This document shows positions 34,202 to 38,488 of a stretch of DNA of 64,000 nucleotides, piece after piece. The DNA lies in the IMG/VR virus record IMGVR_UViG_3300042885_000900; one strand, given 5' to 3'. A program made the position numbers and the translations under genes. The notes below the pieces were generated by a model. It made no database searches, had not been told where the DNA came from, and worked only from the letters and a program-made list of their open reading frames with translations. This DNA is from a virus (Duplodnaviria > Heunggongvirae > Uroviricota > Caudoviricetes). Numbering within the stretch: position 1 is the first letter of the stretch; the number at the start of each line of letters is the position of its first letter.

Positions 34202-34495
34202 ATGGCAAATTTAGACCCAATAGACTTGGCTCAACCAGAAAATAAGTTGTCGTCTATCGCGACAGCACAAAGAGCAATATTATTCCCAAAAAACGATTAT
34301 AAAACAACTAACCAATATTCTTCGGTTAATCCTGACGCATTGGCGGATGGAGATACTAAAGGTAAAGGGACTGGTGGTGATTTAGATGTTTATAATCAAG
34401 GTGCCGGAGCAATCCAAGACATTTTAGAAAGAAAATCTGAAATAGTTGTGAATACCTTTAAACCAAACGCACCTTACACCACACCAAGCGCTTAA
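34202..34495 (+). CDS. Hypothetical protein
   Basis: Operonic ORF; TAATG coupling to the next gene. Confidence 0.65.
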   Translation: MANLDPIDLAQPENKLSSIATAQRAILFPKNDYKTTNQYSSVNPDALADGDTKGKGTGGDLDVYNQGAGAIQDILERKSEIVVNTFKPNAPYTTPSA

Positions 34496-34911
34496 TGAAA
34501 CTTTACAATACATTTAAGTCCCTTATTTTAGAAGTAGCGTCAGTTGACTCAATAGTCAATGCTATAAAAAATAAAGACAAGATAATAATTTACTACGATG
34601 GTGATGAACCTGGTGGTCGTGGATTAAGGGAGATAGAACCTGTATGTTTTGGATACAGTAAAGCCGATAACCCTGTTCTACGAGCTTGGGATACTCAAGG
34701 AGCGTCTCACACCGGTTATAAAGGAGAACAACCTCTACCAGGATGGAGACTTTTTAGAGCAGATAAAATTCTCTCTTTTAAACCATCCGGAGAAAAGTTT
34801 GACACACCAAAACCCGGCTATAATACAGCCGGAGATAAAAGTATGACAAGAGTTATCATAAATGCGGTTTTTAATGAGCAACCAACTCAAACAGAACCAA
34901 CACAATATTAA
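34495..34911 (+). CDS. Stand-alone WYL-domain protein
   Basis: I.IYY...R.IEP..G......LRAW...WRLFRADKI pattern. Confidence 0.75.
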   Translation: MKLYNTFKSLILEVASVDSIVNAIKNKDKIIIYYDGDEPGGRGLREIEPVCFGYSKADNPVLRAWDTQGASHTGYKGEQPLPGWRLFRADKILSFKPSGEKFDTPKPGYNTAGDKSMTRVIINAVFNEQPTQTEPTQY

Positions 34912-34917
34912 AACATT

Positions 34918-35529
34918 ATGACAAACGAAAATAGTTTAATGGAAAAATTAATGGTGTCTAAAAAAATGATAGACATTCATAACCAAACACCAAGAGGGGG
35001 ATTACCTTCTATGAATTCATATAATTCACCTGAAGTAGAATCATACGATGCTCCACAAGCAAAGTATTCATTACCTCAAGAGTTTTTACAAGAAAATTCA
35101 ACAACAAATGAACCTTATTTATCGTCAATACCTAAAACACCAACGATGCCACAACCTCTTACAAGTGATAGAGTTATGTCATCTAAATTACCTGACGAAA
35201 TAAAACGATTAATGATAGAACACCCAATTAACCAACCAAGTTCTATGGGTGGTGGTTCAGTTTTATCTGATGAATTAGTTGAAAAAGCGTCAAAATTAAT
35301 GAATTTAAAAGGTAATCAACAACCAACCCAAGTTGTTAAAGAACAATCATCTCAACCAAATTTTAATAACAAACAATTAAAGGAAATGTTAAAAGAAGTT
35401 GTTGAGGAAGTTTTATTAGAAAATGGTGTGATTGCCGAATCAACACAAAAATCAAACGAACTCTTCTCTTTTAAAGTTGGAAAACATGTTTTTGAAGGTA
35501 AGGTAACCAAGATTAAAAAATTATCTTAA
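34918..35529 (+). CDS. Hypothetical protein
   Basis: Operonic ORF followed by a terminator. Confidence 0.65.
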   Translation: MTNENSLMEKLMVSKKMIDIHNQTPRGGLPSMNSYNSPEVESYDAPQAKYSLPQEFLQENSTTNEPYLSSIPKTPTMPQPLTSDRVMSSKLPDEIKRLMIEHPINQPSSMGGGSVLSDELVEKASKLMNLKGNQQPTQVVKEQSSQPNFNNKQLKEMLKEVVEEVLLENGVIAESTQKSNELFSFKVGKHVFEGKVTKIKKLS

Positions 35530-35549
35530 CTTTATTTACTCTCAAGATT

Positions 35550-35580
35550 AACCCTCATCTACCAAGTTGGGGGTTTTTTT
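35550..35580 (+). terminator. Intrinsic terminator
   Basis: aaccctca...tgggggtt stem followed by a T run. Confidence 0.6.
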
Positions 35581-35637
35581 ATTTAAAAAACTTTCCTTTT
35601 GATTAAACCGGTATATTTATATAATAAAGATAAAGTT

Positions 35638-36552
35638 ATGGATATTAAAACTGAAAAAAAAATTATCTCCGAATATAAAAAGGGGAAAAGTAGTTTAGAA
35701 ATTGTTAAAATTGTTGGATTATCAAAACCAACAATTCTTAAAGTACTACACAAACATAATTTAGTTAGAAAAAGAGATAGATGTTCTTCTTTAAATATTA
35801 AAAAAGATGGGGAAAAATACTATATTATTCGTAAATGTCCAAAATGTGGTCAAGACATAAAAACTACATCAAAAGATAGAACAATTGCTTGTCGGAATTA
35901 TTTTAATTCCATAAATAAAAATAGTAATTGTGTTAAATGTATGTCAGAATCTTTTATTGGTGAGGGAAATCATTTTTTTGGTAAAACTCACAAAAAAGAA
36001 AGTTTAGAAAAAATATCCAAAAGTAAAAAAGGTCAAAATTCAGGGGATAAAAATCATATGAAACAAGAAAAATATCGTCAAATGAGTAGAGATATTATGA
36101 GGTCAAATTGGGATAACGGTATATTAGATAGGGGTGTAATTTCTGAGCAAATGAAACAAACTCAACGAAGTGGTAAAATTAAATCAACTATTGTTTCAAA
36201 AAAAGAAAAAGAGATTGTTAAAGAATTGAGAAAATTAGGTTATAAAATAATTCATTCATATCGGGTTGATAGTAAAGTGTGTGATGTATATATCCCATCA
36301 TTAAATTTAATTATAGAGTATTTTGGAGATTATTGGCATTGTAATCCAAAAAAATATGAACCAAATTATTTTAATCAGAAAAAAAATAAATTTGCTTGGG
36401 AATTATGGGATTATGATAAAAAGAAACTTGAATTAATTAAAAGTTATGGTTATAATTTAGAAGTTGTGTGGGAGGGAGACCTAAAACTCAACAATAAATT
36501 AATAGAAATCATAATAGAATCCTATGTCACAAAACTCACTTCAACGCCCTAA
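35638..36552 (+). CDS. Free-standing homing-type endonuclease (HTH, Zn ribbon, NUMOD3, Vsr/DUF559-like PD-(D/E)xK)
   Basis: CPKC; NHFFGKTHKKES; CDVYIPSLNLIIEYFGDYWH. ATG 35638 preferred because it follows TATTTATA at 35614. Confidence 0.75.
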   Translation: MDIKTEKKIISEYKKGKSSLEIVKIVGLSKPTILKVLHKHNLVRKRDRCSSLNIKKDGEKYYIIRKCPKCGQDIKTTSKDRTIACRNYFNSINKNSNCVKCMSESFIGEGNHFFGKTHKKESLEKISKSKKGQNSGDKNHMKQEKYRQMSRDIMRSNWDNGILDRGVISEQMKQTQRSGKIKSTIVSKKEKEIVKELRKLGYKIIHSYRVDSKVCDVYIPSLNLIIEYFGDYWHCNPKKYEPNYFNQKKNKFAWELWDYDKKKLELIKSYGYNLEVVWEGDLKLNNKLIEIIIESYVTKLTSTP

Positions 36553-37783
36553 CGGTCAAGAAAAGATTAGCGTACTCGTACTGCCATCTGACCGCTCGGG
36601 CGTTGGTTAACAAAACGGTAAATTTCGCTCAGTCGACCCCCATGTATTCCTACAAAATCAATATCCCGATGATTTTCATGTGGATATTGATTACGACCCA
36701 AAGATAGATGATATTAATTATTGGAAAAAATATCAGATAATTCACGCACATAGAACTATTGGTAATAACTACGATGTGTCGGCACAAATAATTAAAGGGT
36801 TAAAAGAATTAGGGATTATTGTTATTGTTGATATTGATGATTATTGGTTACCAACAGTAGACCACCCAATCCATAGTATTATTGTAAAACATAAAATCCA
36901 CGAAAAAATAGTTGCAAATTTAAAAGAAGCCAGTTATGTTACAACAACAACTGATTTATTTGCAAACGAAATTCGTAAGCTTAATAAAAATGTACTAGTT
37001 TTACCAAACGCTATAAATCCAAAAGAGGGTCAATTTAATCAACCAACACCACCATCAGAAAAAATTAGAGTCGGATGGCTTGGAGGTAGTTCTCACATTG
37101 AGGATTTAAATTTGTTGGGGAATTTTGTTCAAAAAAATCAAGACATAAATGATAAATTACAATATGTTATTTGTGGTTTTGATATTAGAGGTACCGTAAC
37201 GGAAATGAATCCACAAACAGGTGAAGAAAGAAAAAGAGATATATTACCTCACGAAACTGTTTGGACTAAATATGAAGATATTTTCACTAACAAGTATAAA
37301 ACCATAGATGAGAACTATAAAAAACATTTATTAGAGTTCAAAGAAAGAGAATTTTTATCAACAAGTGATTTACCATATGTTAGAGTTTGGACAAAACCTG
37401 TTACAACTTACGCTATGAATTATTCAAAATTTGATATATCTTTGGCACCAATTAAAAATCATATATTCAATAGGATGAAATCTCAATTAAAGGTGATTGA
37501 GGCTGGGTTTTATAAAAAAGCGTTAATTGCTTCAGAAATCGGACCTTACACCATTGATTTAAAACATTGTTTGAAAAATGGTAATTTTACAGATGGTAAC
37601 GCAATTTTAATACCCGAGAATAGAAATCATAGTGATTGGTCTAAATCAATTAAAAAATTGGTTCAAAACCCTGAAATGATTACTGAATTAGGCGAGAGAT
37701 TATTTGAAACTGTTAAAGACAAATATGATTTAAAAAATGTGACCGTTACAAGAGCAGAATTTTACAAATCTTTAATTAAATAA
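36524..37783 (+). CDS. GT-B glycosyltransferase with an in-frame TAA at 36608 (candidate 12-nt translational bypass, or pseudogene)
   Basis: ATG 36524 is in frame with ORF 36680..37783: MSQ...ISVLVLPSDRSGVG*QNGKFRSVDPH...; body has DIDDYW, GWLGGSSH and FNRMKSQLKVIEAG. Confidence 0.7.
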
Positions 37784-37786
37784 AAA

Positions 37787-38488
37787 ATGATAAACATACC
37801 TTTAACCAAAATATTGTTTCTTGATATTGAAACAGTTGGTGGATGTAAAAACTATACCGAGTGTAAAGTTAACAATCCTAATGTGGCAAAACAATTTGAA
37901 AAATATTTTGATTGGTTTCAAAAAAGATTTCCGGAAGATGTTGGTCGGTCATTTGACTATGTCTTTGAAAAACGAGCGGCATTAGTTCCCGAGTTTGCAA
38001 AAATTGTTTGTGTTAGTGTTGCTTTCGTTATGGATAATGGAGATATTAAAAAACAATCATTCTCCGGAGATGATGAAAAAAAATTACTAAAAGATTGCCA
38101 AACATTACTTAATCGTTGTGGTAAATTAGATTTTTATCTATGTGGACATAATCTTAAAAATTTTGACATCCCAATGTTGGCAAAAAGAATGATAATTAAC
38201 GGATTAAAACCATCCTCAATACTACCGTCTTACAATACAAAACCGTGGGAGATTAAAGCCATTGACACCAAAGAAATTTGGCAATACGGAGCTTACACCG
38301 CAATTGGTTCATTGGACTTAATGTGTTCTTGTATGGATGTTCCATCACCAAAGGAAGGTGATGTTACTGGAGATAAAGTTCACGACGCGTATTGGAATAA
38401 AAATATGTTATCAGAAATCACTGCTTATTGTGAGCGTGATGTGTTAGTATTAATTGATGTAATAAAAAAATTAAAAGAATTAGAATAA
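37787..38488 (+). CDS. DEDD 3'-5' exonuclease (PolB-exonuclease-like)
   Basis: FLDIET, GHN..NFDIP and YCERDV motifs. Confidence 0.85.
   Translation: MINIPLTKILFLDIETVGGCKNYTECKVNNPNVAKQFEKYFDWFQKRFPEDVGRSFDYVFEKRAALVPEFAKIVCVSVAFVMDNGDIKKQSFSGDDEKKLLKDCQTLLNRCGKLDFYLCGHNLKNFDIPMLAKRMIINGLKPSSILPSYNTKPWEIKAIDTKEIWQYGAYTAIGSLDLMCSCMDVPSPKEGDVTGDKVHDAYWNKNMLSEITAYCERDVLVLIDVIKKLKELE

Follow-up and report, generated by a model that had tools for sequence, protein, structure and literature searches.

We analysed a 64,000-nucleotide (nt) stretch of viral DNA, hereafter the window (IMG/VR virus record IMGVR_UViG_3300042885_000900; Duplodnaviria, Heunggongvirae, Uroviricota, Caudoviricetes), whose source is a lake jumbo phage, and found that the coding sequence of a glycosyltransferase (GT) gene is interrupted by a stop codon and six further bases lying between two GGT glycine codons. 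Comparison with relatives identifies positions 35583-36616 as a mobile homing-endonuclease cassette that replaced the start of this GT4-type gene. The best reading of the interruption, which we consider probable, is that peptidyl-tRNA-Gly hops from the first GGT to the second. This reading draws on the polymorphism of the cassette among related phages, a family of gaps between GGN codons that covers all three reading frames, an open and constrained GT body, a coding constraint on the leader, and a covarying hairpin upstream of the take-off codon. The main features of the locus are as follows.

35583..36616, + strand: cassette-specific DNA, missing from the endonuclease-free relative G001
36524..36607, + strand: leader open reading frame (ORF), 28 codons from ATG 36524, product MSQNSLQRPNGQEKISVLVLPSDRSGVG
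36605..36607, + strand: take-off codon GGT (Gly28); GGT or GGC in all ~30 cassette alleles
36608..36616, + strand: putative untranslated gap TAA-CAAAAC, 9 nt (TAA 36608-36610, CAA AAC 36611-36616)
36617..36619, + strand: landing codon GGT, the first GG past take-off, followed by AAA TTT (Lys-Phe)
36617..37783, + strand: glycosyltransferase body, 388 codons plus stop (TAA 37781-37783); GT-B fold, GT4-like

A re-reading of 36300-38100 bore out all coordinates that a preliminary description of this DNA had given for the ATG, the first GGT, the TAA, the second GGT and the hairpin arms, and reading of the frames likewise gave the 415-amino-acid (aa) product that it had claimed for a hop. Leader codons 1-10 (MSQNSLQRPN) form an N-terminal extension specific to the cassette, and codons 11-28 are a GC-rich synonymous re-encoding of strand beta1 and the Gly loop of the GT. 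The unusual codons and GC richness remarked on in the preliminary description were seen again (45-52% GC over 36530-36650 vs ~27% in the surrounding region); it had given no cause for them, which is that the stretch belongs to the homing-endonuclease cassette. Beyond the TAA, the window gap consists of six bases, A and C only.

The insert and its allelic family

Relatives of the locus were gathered by GT protein similarity and with DNA patterns, which gave several hundred from freshwater phage contigs of up to ~320 kb. Most of them have an intact GT start, and ~30 distinct alleles carry a cassette-type leader and an interruption at this exact codon. The nearest virus record (G001), which lacks the endonuclease, matches the window at 91% over 35400-35582 and at 96% over 36617-37899, with no match between. 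In place of the cassette it has ~110 nt of AT-rich sequence made up of the promoter region and the first 18 GT codons, and it encodes an uninterrupted 405-aa GT that starts MKEKINVLVLPSDTSGVGKFRS and contains ...SDTSGVGKFRS.... The GT of this relative is intact at the junction, so the window carries exactly 12 extra bases, and the 12-nt insert proposed from the window sequence is borne out by the alignment.

The insert is present unchanged in independent DNA runs, and the assembly error that the preliminary description had allowed for is ruled out. At least 95% of the sampled words of the stretch occur in 14 DNA runs from 2016-2024 and many studies, and contigs from two of these runs span 35550-36747 and 35524-37432 with zero differences. 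A contig from a metatranscriptome library is colinear over 35568-36778, with no change listed within 36524-36680. It is thus extremely unlikely that the interruption is an assembly or sequencing artefact, since identical sequence recurs in independent contigs across years and studies and related cassette alleles are present in dozens of independent metagenomes. The same grade applies to removal at the RNA level by a tiny intron or by editing: no Rfam family, group I intron or other known RNA family matched at the locus, and gaps of 3 nt such as those listed below cannot be introns. The RNA-library contig keeps the insert, which is weak evidence on this point because such libraries can hold DNA. 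In another RNA-library run (X15), one contig joins 35579 to 36719 and skips 1139 nt; it most likely represents an endonuclease-free allele of the same phage group that co-occurs with the cassette allele in the sample. An exact junction search in viral contigs gave no match. Comparison at the DNA level with deposited phages gave Lak phage matches at chance level only, and the best protein match came from a 735-kb uncultured phage whose homologue is uninterrupted.

The gaps of the cassette alleles fall into the following length classes.

3-nt gap: take-off GGT/GGC, stop TAA/TGA, landing GGT/GGA/GGC; 17 distinct alleles
8-nt gap: TAACAAAA, TAACCAAA, TAACTAAA, TAAATCAA, TAAAAAAA; 8 distinct alleles
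9-nt gap: the window (TAACAAAAC) and TAACCAACA; 2 distinct alleles
10-nt gap: GGC-TGAATTTAAA-GGA; 2 distinct alleles, 4 contigs
41-nt gap: GGT-GCT-TAA and then its own 10-bp hairpin; 1 allele (L071)

Overall, all three frame relations between leader and body occur among the cassette alleles, and the window gap (TAACAAAAC) is one base apart from that of L131 (TAACAAAA). The landing codon is GGT, GGA or GGC throughout the ~30 alleles, and TAA or TGA directly follows the take-off codon in every allele but L071, where the stop comes one codon later. The 8- to 10-nt gaps contain no G outside the stop codon, and therefore the first GG after take-off is the landing codon in every case. At this site, intact alleles have one Gly codon (SGVGKFRS) and cassette alleles have two, flanking the gap, so that only a hop restores the intact sequence. 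Gaps of 8, 10 and 41 nt shift the frame of the body and therefore cannot be rescued by readthrough. The leader frame of L071 ends at 1315-1317, before the GT frame becomes open past 1332-1334; the two frames do not overlap, which makes joining by a single frameshift impossible.

These sites share sequence features by which translational bypassing is recognised. Take-off and landing codons can be paired by the same peptidyl-tRNA (GGT/GGC to GGT/GGA/GGC in the ~30 alleles), a stop codon (TAA in the window) sits directly at take-off as a slow A-site codon, and among the relatives L071 has two selected ORFs that neither standard decoding nor a single shift can join. The matched codons and the stop that had been noted in the window alone are kept across ~30 cassette alleles, and the hairpin covaries among 25 distinct leaders.

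The long gap of L071 was also inspected for its form (L071:1240-1365). Its 10-bp hairpin closes on a U5 loop and is separated from the landing GGT by an A-rich tail, the 5' stem (GACGCC/GGCGTC) abuts the take-off codon, and a second in-frame GGT is concealed in the 3' arm of the gap hairpin, which places this gap much nearer to T4 gene 60 in form than the gaps of the other alleles. A search of viral contigs for further copies of the 41-nt type returned only L071 itself. Among the DNA patterns, TCTGACCGNNNNGGNGTTGGT was too loose for metagenomes (~110 of 120 matches were due to chance and only 7 were GT leaders), and a pattern on the 5' inner arm yielded unrelated phage genes as its only new loci. 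Seven distant intact alleles from metagenome contigs, some of them marine (L135, L157, L179, L122, L151, L184, L098), read MSKINVLV.PSDR.GVGKFRS and use GC-richer codons of the cassette-leader type (CCATCTGACCGTACAGGTGTTGGT); judging by these codons, their lineage may be where the cassette leader arose.

The GT body matches the glycosyltransferase family phrog_7162 (E 1.4e-45) and, weakly, Pfam Glyco_trans_1_4 (E 0.028). A structure model built from 27 intact homologues (predicted local distance difference test 80.5, predicted template modelling score 0.79) has a GT-B fold with two Rossmann-like domains, in which beta1 comprises residues 5-10 and a Gly-rich loop residues 11-24; its top Foldseek matches are MshA, GlgM, BshA, PimA and PglA. 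The interruption site falls in the Gly-rich loop that follows beta1. The body is open over 378-389 codons in every cassette allele with complete downstream sequence, and the ratio of nonsynonymous to synonymous substitution rates (dN/dS) between the window and its nearest intact alleles is 0.026-0.035. With the first 20 codons excluded, pairwise dN/dS is 0.02-0.10 for pairs that include a cassette allele vs 0.11-0.125 for pairs of intact alleles. The downstream ORF, considered in the preliminary description as a possible pseudogene, is thus under strong purifying selection and not relaxed. Among 160 loci in two samples picked by GT similarity alone, the only interruptions are these gaps, with no stray stops or frameshifts.

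The leader is constrained as well. Every cassette has an ATG and the leader motif (K/R)I(S/R/N/K)(V/I)L(V/C)(L/I/V/T)PSD(R/Q/K/T)(S/T)GVG, and in the nine leader codons of the hairpin loop, which the search patterns left unconstrained, the proportion of synonymous differences (pS) is 0.48 vs 0.13 for nonsynonymous differences (pN) among 13 distinct leaders. These values indicate that the leader evolves under protein-level selection, and a 28-residue peptide made of the extension, beta1 and the Gly loop would be sensible only if joined to the remaining enzyme.

Two alleles without the endonuclease, L085 and L094, were compared from ~680 nt upstream of the gap. They are 95-100% identical upstream through the leader and again after the GT stop, and 62-82% identical over the GT body from landing codon to stop. 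The backbone is alike and the body unlike, so the body has been swapped by recombination that broke at the landing site, suggesting a hot spot for such events there. In the insert-only clade (L084/L085/L094), long vertical co-inheritance of gap and GT was considered, and this recombination disqualifies the clade as proof of it. For the same reason, the low dN/dS in these three alleles is not assignable to a cassette-bearing history.

The stem-loop upstream of the take-off codon

36542..36605, + strand: 5' stem-loop, arms 36542-49/36598-605 (8 bp) and 36553-58/36589-94 (6 bp), 30-nt loop

A hairpin directly upstream of the gap, ending at the first GGT, was part of the preliminary description, and its arms were found as given there. 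In the window, the last base of its 3' arm is the first G of the take-off codon, and in all alleles this arm ends at that codon. The window hairpin has a minimum free energy of -26.3 kcal/mol (z = -3.1), and none of 200 shuffled sequences was as stable, whereas an intact, endonuclease-free allele has no hairpin (-7.4 kcal/mol, z +1.0). In a gap-free alignment of 16 leaders, 94% of cells are paired, compared to 31-51% when the 3' partner is slid; across all hairpin tests, slid-partner controls gave 29-54%. In the TGA subclass, retrieved through protein similarity and so free of DNA-pattern bias, 96% of cells are paired.

A covariance-model alignment of 25 distinct leaders (A5) replaced an alignment that held reverse-strand and intact-allele matches, and has 95.7% of cells paired. 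One of its covarying pairs takes CG, AU, UA, UG and GC and another takes CG, GC and UA, and 19 cells are double changes, compared to 4.3 +/- 1.9 in shuffles. Some compensations replace residues of the extension (Arg to Pro, Pro to Leu) so as to keep pairing with Gly-loop codons that changed synonymously; because compensations cost amino-acid changes there, the extension appears to exist for RNA structure. L310 has a largely different outer stem at the same place (CCAACTCCAG with CTGGAGTTGG). We consider the covariation signal in these alignments real but narrow. A further pairing, of ACCG at 36591-94 with CGGT at the landing site, was tried and rejected, because the C before the landing GGT occurs only in the window gap and the pairing is hence not conserved.

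Taken together, the cassette supplies a Vsr-like/NUMOD3 endonuclease gene, its own ATG with a 10-codon extension, after which the first 18 GT codons follow in recoded form, a strong hairpin built from the extension and Gly-loop codons, and a stop codon with six A/C bases between two GGT codons. A ribosome starting at ATG 36524 would reach GGT 36605 with TAA in the A site; peptidyl-tRNA-Gly would then unpair, the mRNA would slide by 12 nt, and the tRNA would re-pair with GGT 36617. Decoding would resume at AAA, and the resulting 415-aa protein would read ...SGVGKFRS... at the junction, as intact alleles do. By the time GGU occupies the P site, the ribosome must have opened both stems along their 3' arms, and refolding of these arms at the exit side could pull the message forward by roughly the observed distances. 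Such refolding of a 5' stem-loop has been discussed for gene 60 (Wills et al., bioRxiv 10.1101/2024.12.09.627546). We infer the hop, and its efficiency, from the comparison of alleles, in which it would be the single process that accounts for all of them. The broader claim, namely that these alleles form a natural and diversified family of bypass sites with very short hops (6, 11, 12 and 13 nt, plus one of 44 nt), independent of T4 gene 60, borne on a Vsr-like cassette and pushed by refolding of the 5' stem-loop, is one that we hold with somewhat more confidence than doubt.

The homing-endonuclease cassette and alternative explanations

35638..36552, + strand: free-standing homing endonuclease gene, 304 aa; helix-turn-helix, zinc ribbon, NUMOD3, Vsr-like C-terminus
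36617..36660, + strand: short tract of co-conversion past the gap; 8 of the first 42 nt differ from L005

The last 29 nt of the endonuclease gene overlap the GT leader. The predicted protein has an N-terminal helix-turn-helix, a zinc ribbon, a NUMOD3 motif (26.3 bits, Pfam cut-off 20.4) and a C-terminal nuclease domain that is putatively Vsr-like, of the I-Bth0305I type. It matches PHROGs families annotated 'homing endonuclease' and 'HNH endonuclease' and resembles the I-TevI DNA-binding domain (1i3j, E 0.0026). The C-terminal domain of its structure model matches the I-Bth0305I catalytic domain in Foldseek (3r3p, E 2.9e-3, TMt 0.77) and also Vsr itself (1cw0/1vsr, E 0.011); Pfam MTES_1575 stays below its cut-off (E 0.022). 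Intact homologues on 16 contigs are 38-88% identical and share an invariant D...NLxIExxGDYWHCNP motif, within which D216, E227, D231 and H234 are invariant.

Mobility is apparent from the presence or absence of the endonuclease at one site in otherwise near-identical genomes, together with the co-conversion tract. The first 42 nt past the gap diverge by 19% from L005 vs ~4% in the remaining gene, with identical protein there, and the 21 codons from the landing site to GTG 36680 differ from the relative synonymously only. On the GT tree the insert is scattered and needs 12 changes among 14 rows, so the cassette spreads horizontally. L034, L107, L071 and L254 retain only a C-terminal piece of the endonuclease and L084, L085, L094 and L259 none of it, and leader, hairpin, gap and GT body are intact in all eight. 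Within the 10-nt-gap class, the endonuclease is full length (~315-322 aa) in L312, L319 and L322 and cut down to a 157-aa open stretch in L310, with leader, gap and GT unchanged, which suggests a gene caught in the course of decay. Few stretches of the intact alleles are as conserved as the target region, in which the endonuclease-free target lies around GGTGTTGGAAAATTTCG. If the parallel with T4 mobA/gene 60 holds, the synonymously recoded codons and the insert probably remove the site that the cassette endonuclease would cut and so protect the carrier.

Several points weigh against a hop. The support for it is comparative throughout, and given the horizontal spread many of the invasions may be recent, which weakens the open ORF and the low dN/dS as proof. 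The window gap is in frame, so that readthrough of the TAA is compatible with this sequence alone, and no stop closes the target frame within the 8- and 10-nt gaps, where a -1 or +1 shift is formally possible, with no slippery motif. In the 3-nt-gap alleles GGT..GGA and GGT..GGC, the codons match at the first two positions only. Two base pairs supply most of the covariation, the others being invariant, and the structure itself guided the A5 alignment; some of the alleles were retrieved with patterns that fix the 3' arm and the landing context.

One alternative is that the cassette kills the GT, in which case it would be a selfish endonuclease element whose spread outpaces its cost, and the invaded genes young pseudogenes that have not yet decayed. 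This would suit a horizontal and recent spread in several lineages with the insert scattered on the tree, the 98% protein identity of the window to intact alleles and the exchange of the GT body at the landing site between L085 and L094, and the MobA element has likewise been considered possibly parasitic, with mostly recent insertions (Manning & Atkins, bioRxiv 10.1101/2022.08.31.505936). However, inactivation leaves unexplained why diverged cassettes (endonucleases 38-88% identical) keep an ATG and a coding leader with pS far above pN, why the GGN codons are doubled, why the gaps are free of G and why the hairpin reaches to the take-off codon. The same features, with the GT still open, outlast the loss of the endonuclease, no cassette allele has a second lesion, and other breakage was found in 0 of 160 loci. 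We therefore regard inactivation as unlikely.

Quite improbable, in our judgement, is expression by conventional recoding, with readthrough at the in-frame gaps (9 and 3 nt, adding 2-4 residues to the Gly loop) and -1 or +1 frameshifting at the 8- and 10-nt gaps. Such routes are open in that the window gap is in frame, the -1 frame is free of stops over the 8-nt gaps and the +1 frame over the 10-nt gap, and the site lies in a lower-confidence loop of the model where an insertion is perhaps tolerated. However, three mechanisms would be required for near-identical cassettes one base apart; there is no slippery heptamer, and the overlapping codons (UGG, GCU) offer tRNA-Gly poor re-pairing. Termination at UAA is efficient, neither route is workable in L071, and the invariant second GGN and the absence of G from the gaps would go unexplained. 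The preliminary description had left the choice between a hop and readthrough undecided, and the comparative data favour the hop between the matched GGT codons. That the hop controls the enzyme, as was also proposed there, is possible but unsupported.

A truncated enzyme made from an internal start, for which the leader would be irrelevant, is very unlikely. GTG 36680 does open a 367-aa ORF, but a GTG at this position occurs in 4 of 14 cassette vs 7 of 39 intact alleles, four cassette alleles have no ATG, GTG or TTG in the first 60 codons, and a protein begun there would be missing beta1 and the Gly loop from its N-terminal Rossmann domain. The codons between the landing site and the GTG, with their exclusively synonymous differences, also argue against it, and homologues begin at MKEKINVL and not near 36680, the start that the preliminary description had kept in view as an alternative.

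Further features of the window were recorded around the cassette.

36428..36456, + strand: promoter-like site, TTGAAT-17-TATAAT, 10/12; consensus match only

This sigma-70-like match falls within the 3' end of the endonuclease coding sequence, and the leader ATG follows ~70 nt later. The native upstream region of the GT was replaced by the cassette, and the cassette may for this reason bring its own promoter. No phage tRNA-Gly gene was found in the window. Upstream, at 34495-35529, lie genes of 138 aa and 203 aa whose order is conserved in all relatives examined and which gave no Pfam or PHROG family match.

Comparison with known systems

No description of this cassette was found in the literature. 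To our knowledge, efficient translational bypassing in phages is established for T4 gene 60 only; this bypass and the MobA element were reportedly described by Huang in 1988 and Bonocora in 2011. T4 mobA and the gene 60 gap constitute one mobile element in which the insert blocks self-cleavage (Manning & Atkins, bioRxiv 10.1101/2022.08.31.505936). The endonuclease of the MobA element is lost progressively while the gap is kept, and some metagenomic gene 60 cassettes have VSR-type endonucleases (bioRxiv 10.1101/2022.08.31.505936). That 2022 survey of gene 60 homologues regarded the cassette as unique and confined to one gene (bioRxiv 10.1101/2022.08.31.505936).

The present cassette is similar to T4 gene 60/MobA in combining a homing endonuclease gene with an insert, here predicted to be untranslated, in the coding sequence of the neighbouring target. 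The two also have in common recoded flanks, matched Gly codons with a stop immediately behind the take-off codon, and an N-terminal extension supplied by the cassette, as well as mostly recent insertions and an endonuclease that decays while the gap stays. In contrast to gene 60, the target is a GT4-like glycosyltransferase and not the large subunit of topoisomerase II, and the endonuclease lies upstream of the GT gene, not within it, and does not divide it into two ORFs, whereas the gene 60 cassette splits its host gene at a fixed site. The nuclease has a predicted Vsr-like fold and NUMOD3, whereas MobA is of HNH type, and similarity to the gene 60 element was not noted at the sequence level. 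Compared to the ~50-nt gap of gene 60, most gaps here measure 3-10 nt and have no take-off stem-loop or internal Shine-Dalgarno sequence, the window gap being unstructured; L071, with 41 nt and a hairpin, is the only allele that resembles gene 60 in form. Judged by these comparisons, the cassette is not a member of the T4 gene 60/MobA family. Moreover, bypassing was proven by protein sequencing in T4 and is here inferred from sequence comparison. The 5' stem-loop is strongly conserved and covarying in the present cassette, whereas it is not conserved in the gene 60 family (bioRxiv 10.1101/2022.08.31.505936).

A closer parallel in size is found in the synthetic stop-hops made in Escherichia coli, in which, according to the account of Weiss et al. 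1987 in Atkins et al. 2016 (PMC5009743), matched codons around a stop allow 9 nt to be decoded as one amino acid. The 3-nt-gap alleles (GGT-TAA-GGT) have exactly the stop-hop form described there, and the window adds six bases to it. As far as that account describes them, the synthetic sites were engineered, of low efficiency and devoid of stimulators, whereas those of the cassette are natural, conserved and preceded by a dedicated hairpin. No natural in-frame stop-hop was known as of 2016, and shorter natural counterparts had long been expected (PMC5009743). If the hop is real, these alleles would be the first natural 'stop-hops' and a natural set of variants from which minimal requirements for bypassing could be read; their series of gap lengths and hairpins would serve tests of take-off, sliding and landing.

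Mitochondrial byps of Magnusiomyces, reportedly described by Lang in 2014 and Nosek in 2015, offer another comparison. Similar to them, the cassette alleles present many short mobile inserts in coding sequence that are, by prediction here, skipped between matched codons; unlike the cassette, byps have GC-rich hairpins of 27-55 nt inside the gap, no linkage to an endonuclease, and belong to mitochondrial translation. The endonuclease, for its part, shares with I-Bth0305I and the free-standing endonucleases of T4 type a fold match of its model, NUMOD3, an I-TevI-like binding module, presence/absence polymorphism and co-conversion. I-Bth0305I is intron-encoded in a recA gene, whereas the endonuclease of the cassette is free-standing and its cleavage predicted.

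A practical consequence concerns annotation, as truncated ORF calls beside homing endonuclease genes, here the one at GTG 36680, may conceal recoded full-length genes. If our reading is correct, the cassette would be a second and unrelated combination of an endonuclease with a gap, in a different gene, with gaps down to 3 nt and a covarying 5' hairpin, and the pairing of a protective gap with a ribosome hop, so far represented by T4 gene 60, would be a recurrent solution for selfish endonucleases.

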